Assembly: GCA_040387635.1 (NCBI GenBank)
Contig: JAZKDJ010000001.1
Location: 451,193 to 515,192, forward strand
Length of the DNA stretch: 64,000 nt
Source of the DNA: Patescibacteria group bacterium
Lineage (GTDB): Bacteria; Patescibacteriota; Minisyncoccia; Phycocordibacterales; PALSA-1337
Reading direction: 5' to 3'
Positions 18,244-33,449 of the stretch are shown here, piece by piece. The notes under the pieces are model-generated. The model did not search any database. It saw only the letters and a list, made by a program, of their open reading frames with translations, and was not told the DNA's origin. Position numbers and translations under genes: made by a program. Numbering within the stretch: the first letter of the stretch is position 1; every line of letters starts with the position of its first letter.

Positions 18244-18354
18244 GTGTGTCTATAATTACTCTACTCCTCTATAGTTTAAAGTCAAAGCCAACGTGGCTAT
18301 ATTTCTCAATATCAGTTGCTTAAATACGGCCCGTATGATACATTGTTCTCCACT

Positions 18355-18786
18355 ATGGCAACAAACGTACTCTCGCCAATAAACGTAGAAGAACGAAAGA
18401 AACTCGATGTAAAAGCGGGTGACACAGTTCGCGTTTGGCAAAAAATCAAAGAAAAGGATAAGTTTCGACTTCAGGCTTTCGAAGGTCTTGTACTTGCTCG
18501 AAAGCATGGTTCAGAAGCTGGTGCGACATTTACAGTTCGAAAGGTAATGGACGGAGTTGGAGTAGAGAAAATCTTCCCAGTCTTCTCACCAATGATCGAC
18601 AAGATTGAAATCCTCCGAAGATCAAAGGTTCGACGAGCAAAGCTTTACTTCGTTCGAGAGAAGGCAGCAAAGGAGATCCGACGACAGATGCGAAAGCTCC
18701 TCACATCACGAGAAGAGTCAACAGCAGAAGTTGCTGCAGCAGCGGCTCCAGAGGCAGCTCCAGAAGCGACAGCCGAGACAAAGTAA
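18355..18786 (+). CDS. rplS: 50S ribosomal protein L19 with Ala/Glu-rich C-terminal extension
   Basis: [31 protein letters not shown] ... TFTVRKV ... [31 protein letters not shown]. The ATG at 18355 is preferred over the TTG at 18316. Confidence 0.9.
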
Positions 18787-18810
18787 ATCTCATAATAGAC
18801 TCAAAACAAA

Positions 18811-18836
18811 AACTTCCGGAATGGCCGGAAGTTTTT
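18811..18836 (+). terminator. intrinsic terminator
   Basis: Stem AACTTCCGG ... CCGGAAGTT followed by a T-run. Confidence 0.75.
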
Positions 18837-18926
18837 GTTTCTGGTTGTTTGCGTCAAAAGGTTGAAAATATAGCGAAACTTAGCTATAGTAGGCAGGCTA
18901 TGGAAATTGTCCGTAGCATAAGACAT

Positions 18927-19010
18927 GCGCAGGTGGCGAAATTGGTAGACGCACTACCTTGAGGTGGTAGCGCCTTCACGGGCTTGGAGGTTCAAATCCT
19001 CTCCTGCGCA
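18927..19010 (+). tRNA. tRNA-Leu (anticodon GAG)
   Basis: 84 nt with a long variable arm. Anticodon arm CTACC-TTGAGGT-GGTAG; T-loop GGTTCAAATCC. Confidence 0.85.
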
Positions 19011-19067
19011 CATTGTTTCAGATTACTCAGAACACTGTACGGTTCGGAGTGTTTCCGAGGCAAGCAT

Positions 19068-19139
19068 GGTGGCTATAGTTTAGTGGTAAAACTCCGGTTT
19101 GTGGAACCGGTATCGAGAGTCCGATTCTCTCTAGCCACC
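19068..19139 (+). tRNA. tRNA-His (anticodon GTG) with encoded G-1
   Basis: G-GTGGCTA ... TAGCCAC-C acceptor with an extra 5' G. Anticodon arm CCGGT-TTGTGGA-ACCGG. Confidence 0.85.
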
Positions 19140-19213
19140 CTAGTGGGAATTAGTATAAGGAAGTCTTGTATTTGTCATGTAAAATTAGTTCGAGCTCATG
19201 ATACAATTATTCT

Positions 19214-19660
19214 ATGAATAAAATTTTATTGGCAATTTTAGCAATTGCCGCAGGATATTTTGTATGGTTTGTATATACCTATAATCATCTTACAACTACC
19301 TTTATTTACATCTTCGCCTTTCTCGTATTATTTTTAGTTCTGGTCTTAATGATTCGTTATCTAGAACTTTATTGGAGAGTAACAGTCTTCAAACATTTGG
19401 CTAGGAGATATTCTCTGGCTCATCAATACTCATATTCGGTATGGGGATCAGAAAAGACATTTAATACGCTAGGAGGAATGATCAATGGAAAAAGAGTTAA
19501 AGTCTCTGACAATATTCACTTAAATTTAGCTATCTATGCGAATTATTTGGTAACAAGAGTTTATATAGGAGACCAAATAGTTGCTGATGGAAGTAAGAGA
19601 TGGTTTAAGCATACCTTTTCTCAGTCTTCTATCGACCAGATACTTAGGAATATCAAGTAA
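19214..19660 (+). CDS. hypothetical membrane protein
   Basis: 148 aa with two N-terminal TM helices. Confidence 0.45.
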   Translation: MNKILLAILAIAAGYFVWFVYTYNHLTTTFIYIFAFLVLFLVLVLMIRYLELYWRVTVFKHLARRYSLAHQYSYSVWGSEKTFNTLGGMINGKRVKVSDNIHLNLAIYANYLVTRVYIGDQIVADGSKRWFKHTFSQSSIDQILRNIK

Positions 19661-19695
19661 GCCGAGGAGTTCATATTTAACTAGGAAGGTGGGGA

Positions 19696-20184
19696 ATGAA
19701 AATGCTTGAATCGTTCCTCTTCTCAAATTCAAATATAGTTCTAACTTCCTCTACGATGGCACCCCATATAATGGATATAGTTTCTCGAACAAAAGCATTA
19801 AATCTCCCGATAGGACAATATTGTGTTTTTGGAAGTGGAGTATTAGAAGTCCATGGAATTCGTAAGGCAAAGGATATAGATATCCTTGTGAATGGCGAGT
19901 TGTTTAAAAAATTAAAAAAAGAAGGTTGGAAACGAAAATGGTTTTTCTGGAGAACTCTATGGGCTAAGTGTATTACAAACGGTCAGAATGAAGCCTTCAC
20001 TAATCTTTACTGGGCTAGAAAATATAGACCAAATACACAAGAATTAATAAATCGAGCGGAGCTTCACGATGGAATACCTTTTCTTCAGTTAGAAGATTTA
20101 TTAGAATTTCAAAGAAATTTACCTCGAGAGAAGGATAAAAGGGGAGTGAAAATGATGGAGGATTATTTTGCTTCTAAAAAGTAA
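19696..20184 (+). CDS. putative small nucleotidyltransferase-fold protein
   Basis: CVFGSGVLEVHGIRKAKDIDILV matches the GSG ... DxD nucleotidyltransferase signature. Confidence 0.5.
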   Translation: MKMLESFLFSNSNIVLTSSTMAPHIMDIVSRTKALNLPIGQYCVFGSGVLEVHGIRKAKDIDILVNGELFKKLKKEGWKRKWFFWRTLWAKCITNGQNEAFTNLYWARKYRPNTQELINRAELHDGIPFLQLEDLLEFQRNLPREKDKRGVKMMEDYFASKK

Positions 20185-20346
20185 TTATCTTTAAGCTGAT
20201 TAAAGTATTTAATAACTTCAACTTAAGCTCATCACTCGATCTCTGATTGACAAAGAACGACATTGGTTATATTTTAGGTTTGGACAAAGTAGCATGTTGC
20301 TGCTCCCATAACTGGCCAATATAAGCCATTCCCAAAAGGAAAAATT

Positions 20347-20787
20347 ATGGATAAGGTAACGATTCGTTTCGGTAAAAAACTGCAGGAAGTGCTCAGAGAT
20401 AATCCTGCTTTTTTTAAAGAGCTCACCTTACAAACCGCCTTTGCATTTGTGGGGTTTGTCACTTCAATCACATCACTTGGATTTTGTGGTGGAGTACCTA
20501 TAAAAATATTCAGGGTTCATGATTGTGACATTCTCAAGACCGGAGGCTTGATACCTGGACCCAGAACAAGAAACCTTCTTGAAGATGCTAATCGGCTCAG
20601 CGATAGGATAGCTGTAGAGTTTGAAATCGCCGAGACTTCTAATCGCGTAAGCGTTAAGTTCCATTTTTACGGAAGTGGCAAAAAAGCACCCATCTATTTA
20701 CGGTGCGCGGGGATAGTTGAGGAGGATTACGTTCGCGAGTTTCCGTTGTTTCAATTCACTTCAGAATTTTTCCCCCAATTCTGTTAA
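20347..20787 (+). CDS. hypothetical protein
   Basis: 146-aa ORF with no motif recognised. Confidence 0.4.
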   Translation: MDKVTIRFGKKLQEVLRDNPAFFKELTLQTAFAFVGFVTSITSLGFCGGVPIKIFRVHDCDILKTGGLIPGPRTRNLLEDANRLSDRIAVEFEIAETSNRVSVKFHFYGSGKKAPIYLRCAGIVEEDYVREFPLFQFTSEFFPQFC

Positions 20788-20796
20788 ACATTTCTT

Positions 20797-20845
20797 ACCG
20801 CTCGACAGATTCCGCCCTACGGTCTCTGTCGAGCGGTTTCTTTTT
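20797..20845 (+). terminator. intrinsic terminator
   Basis: 13-bp stem ACCGCTCGACAGA ... TCTGTCGAGCGGT followed by TTCTTTTT. Separates 20347-20787 from the CDPS block. Confidence 0.8.
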
Positions 20846-20903
20846 ATCTAACCTAGGCTCCAATTAATCTCGCATACGATCGCGCTCTATAAGTTCTAAC
20901 CAC

Positions 20904-22385
20904 TTGTACGTACTAACCCCACGCTTAGAAAAAGAGTTTATTAGGGGATACAAAAGGATCTTATTCTGCTATGCTTTCTTTATGATTGATTTGTATCCAG
21001 TAATTGGGATGAGTCCTGGGAACAGCTATTTTAAAGATGAGGAAGTAACTTATCTTCTTAAAACAGTTGTAGAACGATATGGTAAGACTGCAATTCTCAT
21101 TGCAGATATTCCAGCCGTTTCTACTTATGTGGCTCTTGGTTATCCTCAGAATAGAGCAAGAAGAGATAAGGCTTTACCACAGGGAAATAATTTGAGAAAC
21201 CGTACTCTTCGAGTAGCGCATGAACTTGGCCTATCCGATAAGGTAAGGGTTATCGATTGGGAAACAGAAATTGAGAATAATTTGGAATATAAAAAAACAT
21301 ACGAGAGAATTTTGCATTTATATACTACAAACTCTGATTTTGAAACATCAGCAAATAAAACTACGAGGGGTGTATTAGAACATTACAAAAAAGACATTTC
21401 TGACATGGATTTGGCTGTTAGAACTGCCGTACATTACCTTCTTTCTGAATTGGCTTTTCTTGAGTTTGCGCCGAAGTATTTTGGTGTTGAAAAGGTTTCA
21501 TATGTCTATCACAAAAACTGGCAAGTTTACGAGGATTATATTGCTGGAAAATTTGACGGTGTAATAAAACTACATATGGATTTTATTCTCTTAGAAAACC
21601 CATATGAAACATACAACCCAATTTGGGGATTGGAAGAGCAGGAAGATGAAAAATATAGAGATGTCTTAGATCGAATTGAAAAAACAAAAACGTTGAGAGT
21701 TGGATTTATACAGTCCGTTCCTACTTTTATGTATGATAAGGACCTCAATAATTTCTCAGGTATTTTTTATGAAATTATAAATATCATTTCTAAGAAATAT
21801 GATTGGAAGATTCAATGGACTGAAGAAACGGGGTACGGTGTTATTGCAGAAGGGTTGAATAACGACAGGTTTGATATATTCGGTCCGACTGTATGGCCAA
21901 CTCCAGAGCGTCTAAGGGTCGCCACTTTTTCCAAGTCGCTTTTTAAAAGTCCTGTATTTACATATGTTCGTTCAGATAATTATAAAAGTGAATTAGATCT
22001 TAAGGACAATGCAAATATGAGAGTTGTAATTATGGATAATGACATTATGGACTCCATAGCAAAAGAGGATTTTCCAAATAACCGTCAAGTCATGATACCT
22101 CAACTCTCAAGTAATATTGCGTGTGCTAAATTTGTCGCAGATGGCAAAGGAGATTTTACTTTCAGGGAGAAATATCTTGTTGAATATTTTAATAAAGATT
22201 CTAACATTAAACTTATTGCTGCTTCAGAAAAACCGATTAGGGTTTATGAAAATTCGTTTATGTTAAAAAAGGGGGAGGCTCGGTTAAAAGAGTTTTTAGA
22301 TAAGGAGCTTGATATATTGGAGCAAGATGGGACAATTAAAAGTTTGATAAAGAAATACACGGGTTCTGAAGATGCTTTTCTATGA
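20904..22385 (+). CDS. cyclodipeptide synthase (NYH subfamily) fused to a type-2 periplasmic-binding-protein (family-3 SBP-like) domain
   Basis: From the TTG start: IGMSPGNSYF (G35, S37, N40), HYLLSE (Y178, E182) and YVYH (Y202, H203), the same residue numbers as AlbC from memory. Residues from about 262 on (TLRVGFIQSVPTF ... DRFDIFGPTVWPTPERL ... FSKSLF) look like an amino-acid-type SBP. No signal peptide. Confidence 0.75.
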   Translation: MYVLTPRLEKEFIRGYKRILFCYAFFMIDLYPVIGMSPGNSYFKDEEVTYLLKTVVERYGKTAILIADIPAVSTYVALGYPQNRARRDKALPQGNNLRNRTLRVAHELGLSDKVRVIDWETEIENNLEYKKTYERILHLYTTNSDFETSANKTTRGVLEHYKKDISDMDLAVRTAVHYLLSELAFLEFAPKYFGVEKVSYVYHKNWQVYEDYIAGKFDGVIKLHMDFILLENPYETYNPIWGLEEQEDEKYRDVLDRIEKTKTLRVGFIQSVPTFMYDKDLNNFSGIFYEIINIISKKYDWKIQWTEETGYGVIAEGLNNDRFDIFGPTVWPTPERLRVATFSKSLFKSPVFTYVRSDNYKSELDLKDNANMRVVIMDNDIMDSIAKEDFPNNRQVMIPQLSSNIACAKFVADGKGDFTFREKYLVEYFNKDSNIKLIAASEKPIRVYENSFMLKKGEARLKEFLDKELDILEQDGTIKSLIKKYTGSEDAFL

Positions 22386-22423
22386 GGTTCTAACACTGTT
22401 CATTACAGGGTATACTTTGTCTC

Positions 22424-23275
22424 ATGGATTCTTGGTTTTTCAATTCGATTCTCGCTATGGCTGCCTTTGGTGGTATGCAAGCCTTGTTAAAGGTTCCTGC
22501 AGCGAAGGGTTACAGTAAATTTGTTTACTCGGTCCTTAGTTTTGCGGTGGCCTTAATTTTAAGTTTTGTATTTTTTAGGAGTGACATATCTTTTGATGTG
22601 CACACAATGCTCTTTGGTTTTGCGTGGGGAATTGCGAATGCTGCATATGTGCTTCTTCAGATGCAGATATTAAAAAGACTTGATACGAGTGAATCTTTTC
22701 CGATAACTAGTTTGGGTTCGCATGTTCTCGTTGTGATTATCGGCATTTTCTTTTTTAATGACATTCTTTCAGCTCTGCAAACTGCTGCGCTTATCGGAAC
22801 ATTCTTGCTTATCGGTTTCTATAATCATACGAATAAGCACATAACACTGAGTAACGGTTTGATACCTACTGCAGCAGGAATCATTTTGCTTTCAACTTTC
22901 ATAAAGTTTATCCAAAAATCAGGTTCGATATCCAGCGTGACAGGCGACTATATCTTCTGGCAATTGTTTTTCGCTACGATTGCTTCCGTACTTATTCTGC
23001 TGCTGACTAAAAATAAACGACTGGCTGAAAGGAAGGTTGATGGGAAATTGATAATATGGTCTTCTCTCGCTGGTATTTTATTCTTCGCTGGAACTGTAGC
23101 TATGGTCAAGGCGCTTACAACCGGGCCATTTTCATTGGTGTACACCATCAATACTTTCTATATATTGGTGAGTTCGATTGTAGCTTGGAAGCTTTTTGGA
23201 GAGAAACTGACACGTCAGAAGGTGCTATTTATTTTGTTGGCTATTGTGGTTCTTGTGTTGATTAAGGTTGGGTAG
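22424..23275 (+). CDS. DMT-superfamily (EamA-like) permease
   Basis: 283 aa with about 10 hydrophobic helices in two similar halves. Confidence 0.6.
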   Translation: MDSWFFNSILAMAAFGGMQALLKVPAAKGYSKFVYSVLSFAVALILSFVFFRSDISFDVHTMLFGFAWGIANAAYVLLQMQILKRLDTSESFPITSLGSHVLVVIIGIFFFNDILSALQTAALIGTFLLIGFYNHTNKHITLSNGLIPTAAGIILLSTFIKFIQKSGSISSVTGDYIFWQLFFATIASVLILLLTKNKRLAERKVDGKLIIWSSLAGILFFAGTVAMVKALTTGPFSLVYTINTFYILVSSIVAWKLFGEKLTRQKVLFILLAIVVLVLIKVG

Positions 23276-23344
23276 GTGGTTCTCATTAAACTACATATTA
23301 ATCACGGTGTTATGTGTGTATCTATTACGAGGTATACTCAAATA

Positions 23345-24184
23345 ATGGAAGCCAAATATACTCCCTTAGATAAATCTTGGATTATTCGCATGGGCATTCT
23401 TGATATTGCTCATGGATACTCTGACATCATCAATTTTCTTAATGCTCAAGAAAACCTTGGAGATGATTTGATTGCACTAAAAAGAGCAGCACTTGCTTGG
23501 GATAAAAATGAACCAATTGATGTAGGTGAATCGGGAACGCTGTATAGGTTCCTAAAATTTACATCTTGGAAACTAAACCTCAACAAAGAATTTGTAATTC
23601 ATAGGACTCTTAAGGAAAGAAAAATAACTGATGATCCGAGTGTCGTAGACCTGCCACAAAGTGAACTAATTAAACTGGATAATAATACTTCTCAGTGGGC
23701 GAGTGCAAAAGTTTTACTGGGAGATACAGAGAGGTTAGAGAATCCTTCGTATAAACTCAAAGTAACATACGAGGCGGTTGATCATTGGAATAATATGCGA
23801 GCTGAAGGAAAAGTGTGGGAACCTCGATACGACGAAACAATACAGAGACAAGTTGAAGCTTTTGAGAAAATGCTAAAGGGTGAGAACGTTGAATTTGTTC
23901 CCGAGCAGGCTGAAGATTTTTGTTTTGCTTATACCTTTGGGTACGTAACCTTAGAAGAAGGAGAGAAGAAATGGCCAAGCCTACGTGGACATGAGAGTGA
24001 TCGAATAGATGAGATGGAGAAAACATTGGTTCAAGCCAAAGAAGGAAGGGAAATAATCTCTAAGGATCATAGGGTAATACAAGCAATAGGGATGTGGGGT
24101 AAGTTGAATAATATAAAGTTAAATATTTTGTATCCAGAGTCAGTTAATAAAAGCTGGCCTCAATTCTGTGATTTTTTATCTTAA
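23345..24184 (+). CDS. size-reduced EPSP-synthase-fold (enolpyruvyl transferase-like) protein
   Basis: LDKSWIIR (AroA KSxxxR), GESGTLYRFL (GNAGTAMRPL), LKERK (KERP), TSQ (SSQ), HESDR (KETDR), DHRVIQ (DHRMAM), NKSWPQF (AKTFPDYF). Only about 279 aa against about 430 for AroA. The ATG at 23345 is preferred over the GTG at 23276. Confidence 0.5.
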   Translation: MEAKYTPLDKSWIIRMGILDIAHGYSDIINFLNAQENLGDDLIALKRAALAWDKNEPIDVGESGTLYRFLKFTSWKLNLNKEFVIHRTLKERKITDDPSVVDLPQSELIKLDNNTSQWASAKVLLGDTERLENPSYKLKVTYEAVDHWNNMRAEGKVWEPRYDETIQRQVEAFEKMLKGENVEFVPEQAEDFCFAYTFGYVTLEEGEKKWPSLRGHESDRIDEMEKTLVQAKEGREIISKDHRVIQAIGMWGKLNNIKLNILYPESVNKSWPQFCDFLS

Positions 24185-28006: not shown

Positions 28007-28753
28007 TTACGATTTCATTCGTAACAAGTTGTGTGATCCTTTTGAGCTAAGGAACGGGAGCTTCTTGCTCTTGGGCTTGTCGCTCGGCGCAACAGCAGGG
28101 ATCTTCTTGTTTTCAACGGTGAACTCGTCGCCGTTGACGCTGCCTGCGAAATACGAATGCAGGAACAGTTTGTATTTGCCGGTGGCGACAGTTCTGGGAA
28201 TCTTCACCACTTTCTTGCCGAGGACCGTAGACACGGTTCCAAGGCGAGCGTAGCCATCAGGTCCTGCACCATCGCCCACGAGGTAGATCGTGTAGTGATC
28301 GCTGCTCATGATTGGATCATTCCAAGTCATTCTCACCATGCCGCCAGCTTTTATGATTTGCCCTTCGGAGGGTGATGTCATGCCGGACATGATCTTGATC
28401 ATAGGTCCCGTTGCCGAGACTTCTACACCTGCGTCGTTTGTGCCTGTCACGTGGAGGCGATAGTAGCCGGTGTTGAGTTCAAGCGGGAGAGTCCAGCCTG
28501 TGCCGCTCACTCCACCTTGGACGATCGGAATGTCCGGCAGTTCTTCTGGCGGACAAGTGACGTCTTCGGGCAACAACTTAATGGTCGTTGTTCCTGAGCA
28601 CCCCGTCACTGTGTAAGAGATGATAACCATCTCTCCTCCGCGCCAGACCTGGTCGGTTTGGGGAGGTGGAGTAAGTAATTCGATTGAGGCGATCGCGGCG
28701 TGTGTTTTAACAACACAAGCCAAGATAGCAAAGGTGAGGAGTAGTTTCTTCAT
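28007..28753 (-). CDS. secreted hypothetical protein (beta-rich)
   Basis: Signal peptide MKKLLLTFAILACVVKTHA. G+C-richer than its neighbours. Confidence 0.55.
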   Translation of the reverse strand: MKKLLLTFAILACVVKTHAAIASIELLTPPPQTDQVWRGGEMVIISYTVTGCSGTTTIKLLPEDVTCPPEELPDIPIVQGGVSGTGWTLPLELNTGYYRLHVTGTNDAGVEVSATGPMIKIMSGMTSPSEGQIIKAGGMVRMTWNDPIMSSDHYTIYLVGDGAGPDGYARLGTVSTVLGKKVVKIPRTVATGKYKLFLHSYFAGSVNGDEFTVENKKIPAVAPSDKPKSKKLPFLSSKGSHNLLRMKS

Positions 28754-28860
28754 AGTAACCTTAGGTTGTAATGTGCAGGAATGCAGAGAGAGGATCTGTT
28801 TTTAGAGTAAAACAGTTTTGCCTTAAAGTCAACAAAACTGTGGATGAGGAAAAGGTATGA

Positions 28861-28886
28861 AAAACGCTCCCGTCTGGAAGGGAGCG
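28861..28886 (-). terminator. hairpin with U-run on the minus strand
   Basis: Stem CGCTCCC-GTCTGGAA-GGGAGCG. On the minus strand it is followed by UUUUU. Confidence 0.55.
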
Positions 28887-28889
28887 TGG

Positions 28890-29300
28890 CAATTTTATTC
28901 TCAACAAAGGTTGCCATCTCCTTTGCCTATGTACCCCTATCTTCCATTAAAATGGACCCTCGGGAATACTCGATGACTGAACTATGAGCGAACACTGGTA
29001 ACTATGCATGACCAGGTGCACAGCCACTAGTTTGCGTACCGTGCCCGCTGGACTAAGTAGATCAAAATGATGCAGGAGAGTCAATTGTGGATGCAGTGCT
29101 GGTGGGTTGTTTCCGACCAACCTTTCGACAACTGGAACCGAAATAGCTACTCTGGTACGCACAGCGCAGCTAGACGTTATCTTACGGAATCTTCACCTAC
29201 ACAGCTGATAAGGTACATCCGCACGATATTCCAAGAACCTAATGACGGCTCTCGCGTTTTACGTTCCTAACGCCAGGGCACCAGCCAAAGCATCCATTTA
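28890..29300 (-). ncRNA. large structured RNA candidate, class unknown
   Basis: About 400 nt without a credible ORF in a 630-nt divergent spacer. Visibly more G+C-rich than other spacers. Long-range complementary pairs GCGTACC/GGTACGC and GTGCCC/GGGCAC. The strand is inferred only from the terminator. Confidence 0.3.
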
Positions 29301-29383
29301 GCAGTATAGATAAAATGGTTGTTTGTGCAATGAGAGAGCTAAATTTAATTAGTAATTAAAATATGAACTGATATACTTCGAAC

Positions 29384-30328
29384 ATGAATGAAGAAACACC
29401 TAATGTAAACGCCAAAGGCTTTTTGGAGACCGATGGACACCAGATTTATTGGGAAGATTGGGGAAATCCAAAAGCTCCGCCTGTCTTTTTTATTCATGGC
29501 GGCCCGGGAGGAGGGTTTTGCGACAGAGATAAGCTTCTGTTTAATCCTGCTCTGCATAGAGTGATATTCCATGATCAGCGTGGAAGCGGTAAAAGCATTC
29601 CTTTTGCTGATACAAAGAACAATACGACTCAGGGACTTGTTGGAGATATAGAAATTTTGCGAAAACACTTAGGAATCGAAAAGATGTATGTTGTCGGCGG
29701 TTCGTGGGGATCAGCGCTCTCACTCTTTTATGCTATAGCTCACCCTGAACGTGTGAAGAGACTTCTTGTGTGGGGACTTTTTCTTGCGCGACAATTTGAA
29801 ATTGATTTCGTGAATGAAGGATATCCGAGATACTTTTTTACTGAAGCATGGGAACGCTTTATTGCATTAGTGCCCGAAGAGTATCGAAAGACAGGGGATA
29901 ATGTTATGGGGTACTACTCCAAGATGATGAATTCTCAGGATGAGACGGAAGCTAGGAAATTTGCAGATGAGTGGACTCTTTATGAGATCAGCCTTTGTTC
30001 AATCAATTATAATCCTGCGGCTTTGGAGAAAGACGTCATGGGAGACAAGGGGAATATTGCGATAGCTAGAATTGAGACTCACTTTTTCCTTAACAAATGT
30101 TTTGTTCCAGAAAATTACATTTTGGATAATGTTCATAAAATTCAGCATATTCCATGTACCTTGATCCAAGGGCGTTTCGATATGTGCACACCTCCGATTT
30201 CAACTCATGATCTTAAGCGAAAGTATGGAGACAATCTATCTCTAACTCTCGTGAATTCCGGACATCTTTCATCTGATCCAGAATTAGGTTCCGCGCTGAG
30301 AATGGCGATTACTGATTTGTTGGTTTAG
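29384..30328 (+). CDS. pip: prolyl aminopeptidase (alpha/beta hydrolase)
   Basis: HGGPGGG oxyanion loop, nucleophile elbow GGSWGS and C-terminal SGH. Confidence 0.85.
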   Translation: MNEETPNVNAKGFLETDGHQIYWEDWGNPKAPPVFFIHGGPGGGFCDRDKLLFNPALHRVIFHDQRGSGKSIPFADTKNNTTQGLVGDIEILRKHLGIEKMYVVGGSWGSALSLFYAIAHPERVKRLLVWGLFLARQFEIDFVNEGYPRYFFTEAWERFIALVPEEYRKTGDNVMGYYSKMMNSQDETEARKFADEWTLYEISLCSINYNPAALEKDVMGDKGNIAIARIETHFFLNKCFVPENYILDNVHKIQHIPCTLIQGRFDMCTPPISTHDLKRKYGDNLSLTLVNSGHLSSDPELGSALRMAITDLLV

Positions 30329-32327: not shown

Positions 32328-33449
32328 ATGAAAAAACTATTCCTCCTTATGGTGTTTGGTTTCTTGGCATTGCAGCCCATGGAAACTTTTGCTCAAGAAG
32401 CTGTTCTAATCCAGGACAAAATTGAGATTGTGAAAGCGAAAGTAATAGAGGTAGTTGACCAAGAGAAGAGAGAGGTTCCAGGAACTGATGTAGAGAGTAT
32501 TTACCAAACCATCAAAGTTGAAATACTCGAGGGTGAGAAGAAAGGGGAAGTGATTACACTCGAGAATGATTTTTTGGTGCTCAAAGCAGGTGATAGATTT
32601 TTCCTTCATCACAGCACTGATGGTATGACCGGCAAAGAAATGTACTCAGTCAGAGATAAAGATCGCCGCGGAGTGATGCTCGCATTCGTTGCACTATTTG
32701 TCGCTGTTGTGATTATCTTTTCAGGAAAACAGGGACTACGATCAATTCTCAGTTTGGCAGGAAGCTTCTTTGTGATTCTGTATGTCCTCGTCCCGACGCT
32801 TCTCCAAGGCTATCCACCAGTGCTTACAAGCATCGTCATAGCTGCTGTTATTCTTTTCTTGGCAATTTTCCTTACGCATGGCTTCAACAAGGAATCGACG
32901 GTGGCTTTCAGTGGTACAGTAATAGCGGTGATCCTGACGGGAGTGCTTGCGTACCTTGGAGTAAAGTTCGCCGGCCTAACAGGCTTTGCTTCGGAAGAAG
33001 CTGTTTATCTCAACTTCAATACTCGGGGTGCTCTTGATTTTGCAGGTCTGCTTCTAGGTGGAATTATGATCGGAGTGCTTGGAGTTCTCGATGATATCGC
33101 TGTAACACAAGCAGCAGTCGTGAGTGAACTTTATAATTCAGGATCCAATCTTACAGGCAGGGAGATCTACAAGAAAGCTTTGAGAGTTGGTAAAGAGCAC
33201 GTTGGAGCGCTCGTTAACACATTGGCACTCGCGTACACAGGAGCGTCTCTTCCGTTGCTGTTGCTTTTCTCAACATCAGATTCTTCTATTGCGAGTATCA
33301 TCAACCAAGAAATTTTTGCCACAGAGATTATCCGAACTGTCGTTGGAAGTATCGGTCTCATACTAACCGTGCCCATCACTACTTTGCTGGCCGTCTATTT
33401 ACTGAAAGGGTACAAGGGCAAGCATCACGGACATAACCATAGTCATTAA
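32328..33449 (+). CDS. YibE/F-family membrane protein
   Basis: Signal sequence, N-terminal soluble domain, then a multi-TM region with GVLDDIAVTQA. Confidence 0.7.
   Translation: MKKLFLLMVFGFLALQPMETFAQEAVLIQDKIEIVKAKVIEVVDQEKREVPGTDVESIYQTIKVEILEGEKKGEVITLENDFLVLKAGDRFFLHHSTDGMTGKEMYSVRDKDRRGVMLAFVALFVAVVIIFSGKQGLRSILSLAGSFFVILYVLVPTLLQGYPPVLTSIVIAAVILFLAIFLTHGFNKESTVAFSGTVIAVILTGVLAYLGVKFAGLTGFASEEAVYLNFNTRGALDFAGLLLGGIMIGVLGVLDDIAVTQAAVVSELYNSGSNLTGREIYKKALRVGKEHVGALVNTLALAYTGASLPLLLLFSTSDSSIASIINQEIFATEIIRTVVGSIGLILTVPITTLLAVYLLKGYKGKHHGHNHSH

Follow-up and report, generated by a model that had tools for sequence, protein, structure and literature searches.

What is encoded in a long spacer that holds no credible protein gene? 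Saccharibacteria, like other Patescibacteria, live on other bacteria, and their genomes are tiny. The genome considered here (G000) is a single contig of 566 kb, of which we analysed one stretch of 64,000 nt, called the window throughout. Between two divergent genes of the window (28007-28753 on the minus strand and 29384-30328 on the plus strand) lies a spacer of 630 nt (28754-29383). A preliminary description had proposed that some 400 nt of this spacer are either an unclassified structured RNA or a giant leader (riboswitch or attenuator) of the minus-strand gene. The question is therefore which part of the spacer is structured, on which strand, and whether the product would stand alone or serve its neighbour. 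Our answer is that 29296..29088 on the minus strand probably encodes the conserved core of a structured small RNA that stands alone; this RNA would represent a small uncatalogued family limited, as far as searched, to one Saccharibacteria family. Such a candidate could be a regulator, a sensor or a mimic overlooked by protein-centred annotation.

The locus and its composition

The spacer is flanked by the following genes:

28007..28753, minus strand: secreted-protein gene with a weak, sub-threshold Kre9/KNH Ig-like match, downstream of the RNA and on the same strand
29384..30328, plus strand: alpha/beta hydrolase gene, divergent from the RNA

The limits of the spacer are as previously described, and so is its lack of a credible ORF. 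The only ORFs in it encode 47, 67 and 71 aa. Pfam gives no match for any of them at E <0.05, and the 71-aa ORF is without a homologue among proteins of 39-125 residues. The spacer had also been called G+C-rich, which is correct for 28855-29330 (47.5%) but not for the 630 nt as a whole (44%, unremarkable). For comparison, the genome has 169 gaps without an ORF that measure 100 nt or more; their median G+C is 40.0%, and only 4% of them reach the level of 28855-29330; the conserved core defined below is at 50.7%. As a separate matter of composition, the secreted-protein gene has a G+C of 53% (locally up to 57%) in a genome of 44% and, given this difference, may be foreign.

Homologues and distribution

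Homologues of the locus are few. No homologue was found by blastn against 40 relatives. Against 164 genomes of the family, blastn gave one clear match, in genome G077 (E 2.6e-9), covering window positions 29088-29160. The two loci are 76-79% identical over about 215 nt, and compensatory changes are already visible between them. With the G077 locus as the blastn query, two further genomes were added (G131 and G006). A covariance model built from the window and G077 (R1) scores over its full length in G006 (34.0 bits), G131 (33.7 bits) and a fourth relative, G108 (37.8 bits). A second covariance model (R2), which covers the 40 nt of the most conserved part, picked up G108 and also G012 (31.9 bits) within the family. 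The G012 locus does not align to R1; every architectural element can nevertheless be traced in it from the conserved loops, and we regard it as a probable member.

Searched on the family at E <=0.05, R2 gave matches in 33 of 151 genomes. We ran R1 on 26 loci of such matches (15 of which were also inspected by eye), and beyond the four known members the credible ones are G108, at full length, and G012, in the core only. The remaining R2 matches score about 16-26 bits and often fall within ORFs, and those that were inspected lie in coding-like sequence. In total, homologues are present in four other species genomes, with one more that is probable, among 164 genomes of one Saccharibacteria family. 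A degenerate core pattern gives a matching count (5/164 genomes of the family, from 3 of 14 genera), which becomes six genomes and four genera once G012 is included. Each genome carries one copy.

Outside the family, a stricter core pattern had no match in 400 other genomes sampled from 118 families of the order, and R2 gave no credible match either in the order (150 other genomes) or in the phylum (150 genomes). A metagenome scan with the exact core pattern returned 12 loci. These comprise G077's own contig, a candidate with a weak match only (17.3 bits) and 10 others, which match in the pattern region only and look by eye like chance, mostly in coding-like sequence. Viral contigs had no matches, and neither did phage and plasmid records. 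At seven loci around homologues of the hydrolase gene in other Saccharibacteria, the covariance model of the RNA also had no match. The RNA gene is accessory, rare and lineage-restricted, and its rarity limits how general the result can be.

Two further matches were set aside. A 22-nt blastn match in G016 was rejected as a homologue, as it is located in the terminator tail and is without model support. Within the window itself, 33361-33430 (plus strand) gives a weak partial match to R1 (13 bits, E 0.014) that covers the variable insert only and lies inside an ORF (32328-33449); it is taken as noise.

Which part of the spacer is structured

The preliminary description had based the idea of structure on complementary words at a distance. 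These words are present in the spacer, with their coordinates swapped: GCGTACC is at 29034 and GGTACGC at 29154, while GTGCCC is at 29041 and GGGCAC at 29276. As meaningful long-range pairings, they are not supported. The spacer region has 10 complementary 7-mer pairs against 5.6 +/- 3.0 in shuffled sequences (10% of shuffles reach 10), and 25 complementary 6-mer pairs against 22.4. Moreover, the named word pairs connect the conserved core with a 3' part that is absent from every relative.

The same applies to the proposed length. Structure had been attributed to the whole of about 400 nt, whereas the conserved part is the 210-nt core 29296..29088 only. When the full 476 nt (28855-29330) are folded, the minus strand is little better than its shuffles (z -1.75) and the plus strand is no better (z -0.56). 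The core, folded as 213 nt, reaches z -3.45, and none of 200 shuffles is equally stable. The helices that close the structure are not the pairings listed earlier but 29290-29296 with 29088-29094 and 29279-29285 with 29098-29104. What does carry over from the earlier reading is an unclassified structured RNA on the minus strand, which would end in the hairpin noted at the time and lies outside the Rfam families.

Proposed architecture of the RNA

All elements of the core are on the minus strand:

29088..29296, minus strand: conserved core of about 209-210 nt, comprising P1a, P1b, P2, P2b, P3 with an 89-nt insert, J3/5 and P5; homologous to G077, G131, G006 and G108
29290..29296, minus strand: 5' strand of P1a, pairing with 29088-29094; an inverted repeat with two-sided changes in 6/7 pairs across five sequences
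29279..29285, minus strand: 5' strand of P1b, pairing with 29098-29104; an inverted repeat, with a differing helix of 4-17 bp at the equivalent place in 6/6 members
29254..29273, minus strand: P2 hairpin with a 5-bp stem and a conserved 10-nt loop (29259-29268); two-sided changes in 4/5 pairs, 100% of cells paired
29234..29252, minus strand: P2b hairpin; two-sided changes in 5/6 pairs, absent in G006
29229..29233, minus strand: 5' strand of P3, pairing with 29133-29137; two pairs exchange G-C and A-U between members
29123..29132, minus strand: J3/5, joining P3 to P5; single-stranded and nearly invariant, with invariant alignment columns
29105..29122, minus strand: P5 hairpin with an invariant 8-nt loop (29110-29117); shows covariation, and loop position 3 covaries with a position of the P2 loop

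Read from the 5' end, the order across members is P1a, an internal loop, P1b, a junction of 3-5 nt ending in YG, P2 with its loop of 9-10 nt, and an optional P2b. The 3' part continues with P3, J3/5 (9-12 nt), P5, a gap of 0-1 nt and then the return strands of P1b and P1a. The insert carried by P3 is variable, ranging from 50 to 177 nt across members.

Covariation among relatives is present: 20 of the 28 pairs change on both sides among five sequences. Pairs were counted in an alignment of the five firm members fitted to a covariance model; in it, 96.1% of 128 cells hold standard pairs, and these pair figures lean towards structure because the alignment was fitted to the model. Two controls were run on the counts. 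When partners were moved by 1-3 columns, 32-44% of the cells remained paired with 2-4 two-sided pairs, and none of 500 shuffles reached any of five covariation measures. Helices can also be read directly in the unaligned sequences. P2 is an example, with six distinct stems in six members around one conserved loop. Five predicted helices are shown, by comparison of the members, to be kept by compensatory changes.

A tertiary feature may be added to these helices. Position 3 of the P5 loop holds C when the P2 loop has G (four members) and U when it has A (G108 and G012), and the base pair beside this covarying position is an invariant C-G. This suggests that the P2 and P5 loops contact each other, as judged from one covarying position that may reflect only 1-2 evolutionary events. 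The RNA would then fold as a stalk (P1a/P1b) leading into a four-way junction of P1b, P2, P3 and P5, with the loops of P2 and P5 touching and the invariant P3-P5 junction at the centre.

Strand and ends of the predicted transcript

Several observations bear on the strand and the limits of the transcript. Six G-U cells of the alignment would turn into A-C mismatches on the opposite strand, so they fit the minus strand only. The elements around the core are the following:

29303..29330, minus strand: possible promoter, picked by eye, with a -35-like hexamer (29325-29330), a 16-nt spacer and a -10-like hexamer (29303-29308), ending 6 nt before P1
28888..29087, minus strand: 3' extension of 200 nt between the core and the terminator, in this genome only
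28858..28887, minus strand: predicted intrinsic terminator, an 8-bp stem with 6 G-C pairs followed by TTTTT
28812..28841, minus strand: predicted second hairpin, A+T-rich and followed by TTTT

The minus-strand hairpin with its T run had been noted in the preliminary description and is where expected (28887..28864, 110 nt ahead of the ATG at 28753). In G077, G131 and G006, a predicted intrinsic terminator lies within a few bases of P1 on the same strand; in G108, a strong hairpin without a T run follows P1. The second hairpin of the window could serve as a back-up terminator or could overlap a promoter of the secreted-protein gene, the promoter reading having been made by eye.

At the 5' end, promoter-like hexamers were picked by eye just upstream of P1; a strict consensus scan of the window, G077, G131, G006 and G108 gave no promoter where one would be expected. 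Among sequencing runs, none of RNA is listed as containing the locus; the single run that does contain it is of DNA and may come from the source sample. Transcription would start a few bases upstream of P1, near 29297-29302. If it continues to the terminator at 28887-28864, the transcript of this genome would be about 440 nt long and would include the 3' extension, which has no homologue in 163 other genomes of the family and no second copy in G000 (its own fold has a z of -2.22).

A leader of the neighbouring gene or a stand-alone RNA?

The layout of the window invites a second reading, which the preliminary description had also raised: a cis-acting leader of the secreted-protein gene (a riboswitch or attenuator), in which the core would be the sensor and the terminator at 28887-28864 the switch. 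The gene is indeed on the same strand, 110 nt past the terminator. In addition, a terminator after a conserved fold is the usual riboswitch layout, and an invariant junction with touching loops resembles ligand-binding aptamers. The loci of the relatives speak against this reading. Neighbouring genes differ at every locus, with no constant protein neighbour and no function in common, and a same-strand gene within 300 nt downstream is found at one of six loci, the window itself. That is, the five relatives' loci are in different neighbourhoods and none of them has such a gene. In the relatives with a predicted terminator (G077, G131 and G006) it abuts P1, and no alternative (antiterminator) pairing was seen there by eye, whereas in the window 200 unconserved nt separate core and terminator. 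A promoter-like site for the gene, again picked by eye, may also sit between the hairpins and the ATG.

Since the downstream same-strand gene is a feature of this genome only, a giant leader fits the data poorly and we consider it unlikely. A leader role would be no more than a peculiarity of this genome, the window being atypical both in its 200 extra nt and in its gene 110 nt past the terminator. For the stand-alone RNA that we favour, our guess is that the folded molecule would act in trans, its invariant loops and junction serving to bind a protein or a small ligand, and would not control the adjacent gene.

A DNA element at tRNA genes?

The neighbourhood of the relatives raises another alternative, namely that the element acts not as RNA but as DNA, or in single-stranded DNA form as the attachment or transfer site of a mobile element. 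Its sporadic occurrence (5/164 genomes by pattern) would fit such a site. So would its position: in G108, G006 and G131, the RNA lies 0.1-2.2 kb from a block of rplS, tRNA-Leu(GAG), a gene of the cobalamin-adenosyltransferase family and tRNA-His(GTG), its position and orientation varying, and tRNA-Leu and tRNA-His genes are typical integration spots. In G006 there is moreover a 33-nt direct repeat (L030:1568-1600 and 1747-1779, exact over about 22 nt) that covers the 3' end of tRNA-His. One copy of it, a partial tRNA-His 3' end, stands directly after the terminator of the RNA, at a distance of 179 nt from the tRNA gene, and resembles what an integrated element would leave behind once most of it was lost. 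In G131, genes of MazF-like and GIY-YIG type adjoin the RNA.

On the other hand, G-U pairs are tolerated on one strand only, and the intrinsic terminators are on that same strand. The element is single-copy in each genome, no integrase or relaxase is nearby, and no match exists in phage and plasmid records or viral contigs. Near the window locus, a search from 15 to 40 kb gave no copy of a tRNA end. A DNA element is accordingly very improbable in our judgement, and the reading as a stand-alone RNA is retained.

Some features of these neighbourhoods deserve mention in their own right. In the window, rplS and both tRNA genes of the block are at 18316-19140, 10 kb from the RNA, and no adenosyltransferase-like ORF was seen beside them. 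Right after tRNA-Leu(GAG) and tRNA-His(GTG) (18927-19140), a run of genes at 19214-24184 has a G+C of 0.33-0.42 against 44% for the genome, and has the look of an island that was inserted next to these two tRNA genes. In G131, a PemK/MazF-type toxin gene (L039:1719-2123) starts on the opposite strand, 90 nt from the 5' end of the RNA, with no obvious antitoxin ORF before it; GIY-YIG and Bro-like genes are also near the RNA, suggesting that this neighbourhood is a variable region.

Residual coding sequence?

A last alternative is that the spacer is a decayed gene, or plain spacer, and that the similarity among genomes is residual coding conservation. In its favour, a minus-strand frame runs for about 133 codons with just one stop, and a six-residue peptide is common to two antisense ORFs, one of 67 aa in the window and one of 81 aa in G077. 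This peptide is the translation of the invariant junction, though, and indels of 1, 4 and 7 nt put the two antisense frames out of register. In G131 and G006 the antisense frame is interrupted by a TAG stop that results from the covariation of P3, and in the sense frames stops are close by. Substitutions compensate helices and do not gather at third codon positions. No protein-coding frame is conserved among the homologues. The decayed-gene reading, the least probable of those weighed here, is already contradicted by the data, and a small-protein gene was ruled out, being without Pfam match, conserved frame or protein homologue.

Search for known RNA families at the locus

If the spacer encodes a structured RNA, does it belong to a known family? 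In Rfam 15 (4227 models), no family reaches its gathering score in the region, and the only hits across the window are six tRNAs. Lowering the threshold to E <=10 gives eight matches in 28700-29450, all far below their cut-offs; the best has 23.8 bits against a required 50 and falls on two terminator-like hairpins. The loci of three relatives gave nothing at E <=1.

The preliminary description had seen no signature of RNase P RNA or tmRNA, and both are now accounted for elsewhere. RNase P RNA (RF00010) has no match in 28700-29450 at E <=10, and the genome's own is at G000:C1:152168-152559 (116.9 bits). ARAGORN finds no tmRNA in the window, the genome's own (RF00023) being at 311228-311632 (116.1 bits).

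Other candidates were tried and rejected. SRP RNA (RF00169 and RF01854) has no match in the region, and the RNA described here is in just 5/164 genomes of the family. For 6S RNA (RF00013) there is likewise no match, and its rod-like shape with a central bubble differs from the supported fold, a branched four-way junction. No tRNA (RF00005) is called by ARAGORN or Rfam at the site, in the window or at the relatives' loci. A sponge of the CsrB/RsmZ type was rejected because CsrA (PF02599) is over the cut-off in none of the five carrier genomes tested, and a Y RNA of the YrlA type because the TROVE domain of Ro/Rsr (PF05731) is in none of them. We also considered the template of a diversity-generating retroelement acting on the secreted-protein gene; no spacer repeat of more than 18 nt exists in G000, and no reverse transcriptase was seen nearby.

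As a side result of these searches, the Rfam models of small and large bacterial SRP RNA have no match in G000, G077, G006, G131, G010 or G025, and the 6S model has none in G000, whereas most control genomes match. Possible reasons are that SRP RNA has diverged here beyond what the models recognise, or that it escapes the first-look filter.

Comparison with known systems

Housekeeping RNAs (RNase P RNA, tmRNA, SRP RNA and 6S RNA) have a similar size range and are similarly enriched in G+C over spacers. Being found in only 5-6 of 164 related genomes, the RNA described here is not a universal housekeeping RNA.

A closer likeness is to tRNA-like folds (tRNA itself, the tRNA-like domain of tmRNA and YrlA Y RNAs), which have the same succession of stalk, hairpin, helix, long junction, hairpin and again stalk, with a gap of 0-1 nt. 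The D and T loops of tRNA pair with each other, and the apparent contact of the P2 and P5 loops may be likened to this. The order of elements would resemble a cloverleaf, with all tRNA-type detectors negative. Differences are equally clear: ARAGORN and the Rfam models of tRNA, tmRNA and Y RNA give no call here, the stalk extends past the junction with no free 3' end of the CCA type, the loops are of 8 and 9-10 nt, and the third arm carries 50-177 nt. It is tempting to see here the founding member of a new functional class, a tRNA-shaped RNA (with a four-way junction and an elbow-like loop contact) kept as an accessory gene of episymbiotic Saccharibacteria. Its role might be to mimic tRNA, or to serve as a decoy, towards an enzyme or toxin that recognises tRNA; alternatively, it could be a sensor or a ribozyme, with the conserved junction as its active site. 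We regard this idea as a long shot. The compact version of G006 (150 nt) suits structure probing.

The RNA resembles riboswitch aptamers whose loops touch in three respects: several helices meet at a junction whose unpaired bases are invariant, two loops probably contact each other, and a terminator lies past the closing helix. It differs from them in that no Rfam riboswitch matches, five of six loci are without a regulated downstream gene, and nearby genes have no common function.

In the main texts of the literature searched, no description of such an RNA was found for Saccharibacteria, Patescibacteria or the candidate phyla radiation. In excerpts of PMC11109978 these phyla are not mentioned, and in those of PMC11665869 riboswitches are mentioned only as tools. 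The one lineage-specific RNA encountered in the portions searched is lysM-TM7, a cis-regulatory motif upstream of lysM genes and the only TM7-specific motif named in the excerpted text of PMC5737381. Going by its description there, it differs in context from the RNA reported here. The latter may also be compared with the orphan stand-alone RNAs of bacteria for which comparative genomics is the only source (e.g. Weinberg et al. 2017, PMC5737381), which are likewise lineage-restricted, independently terminated, supported by covariation and of unassigned function.
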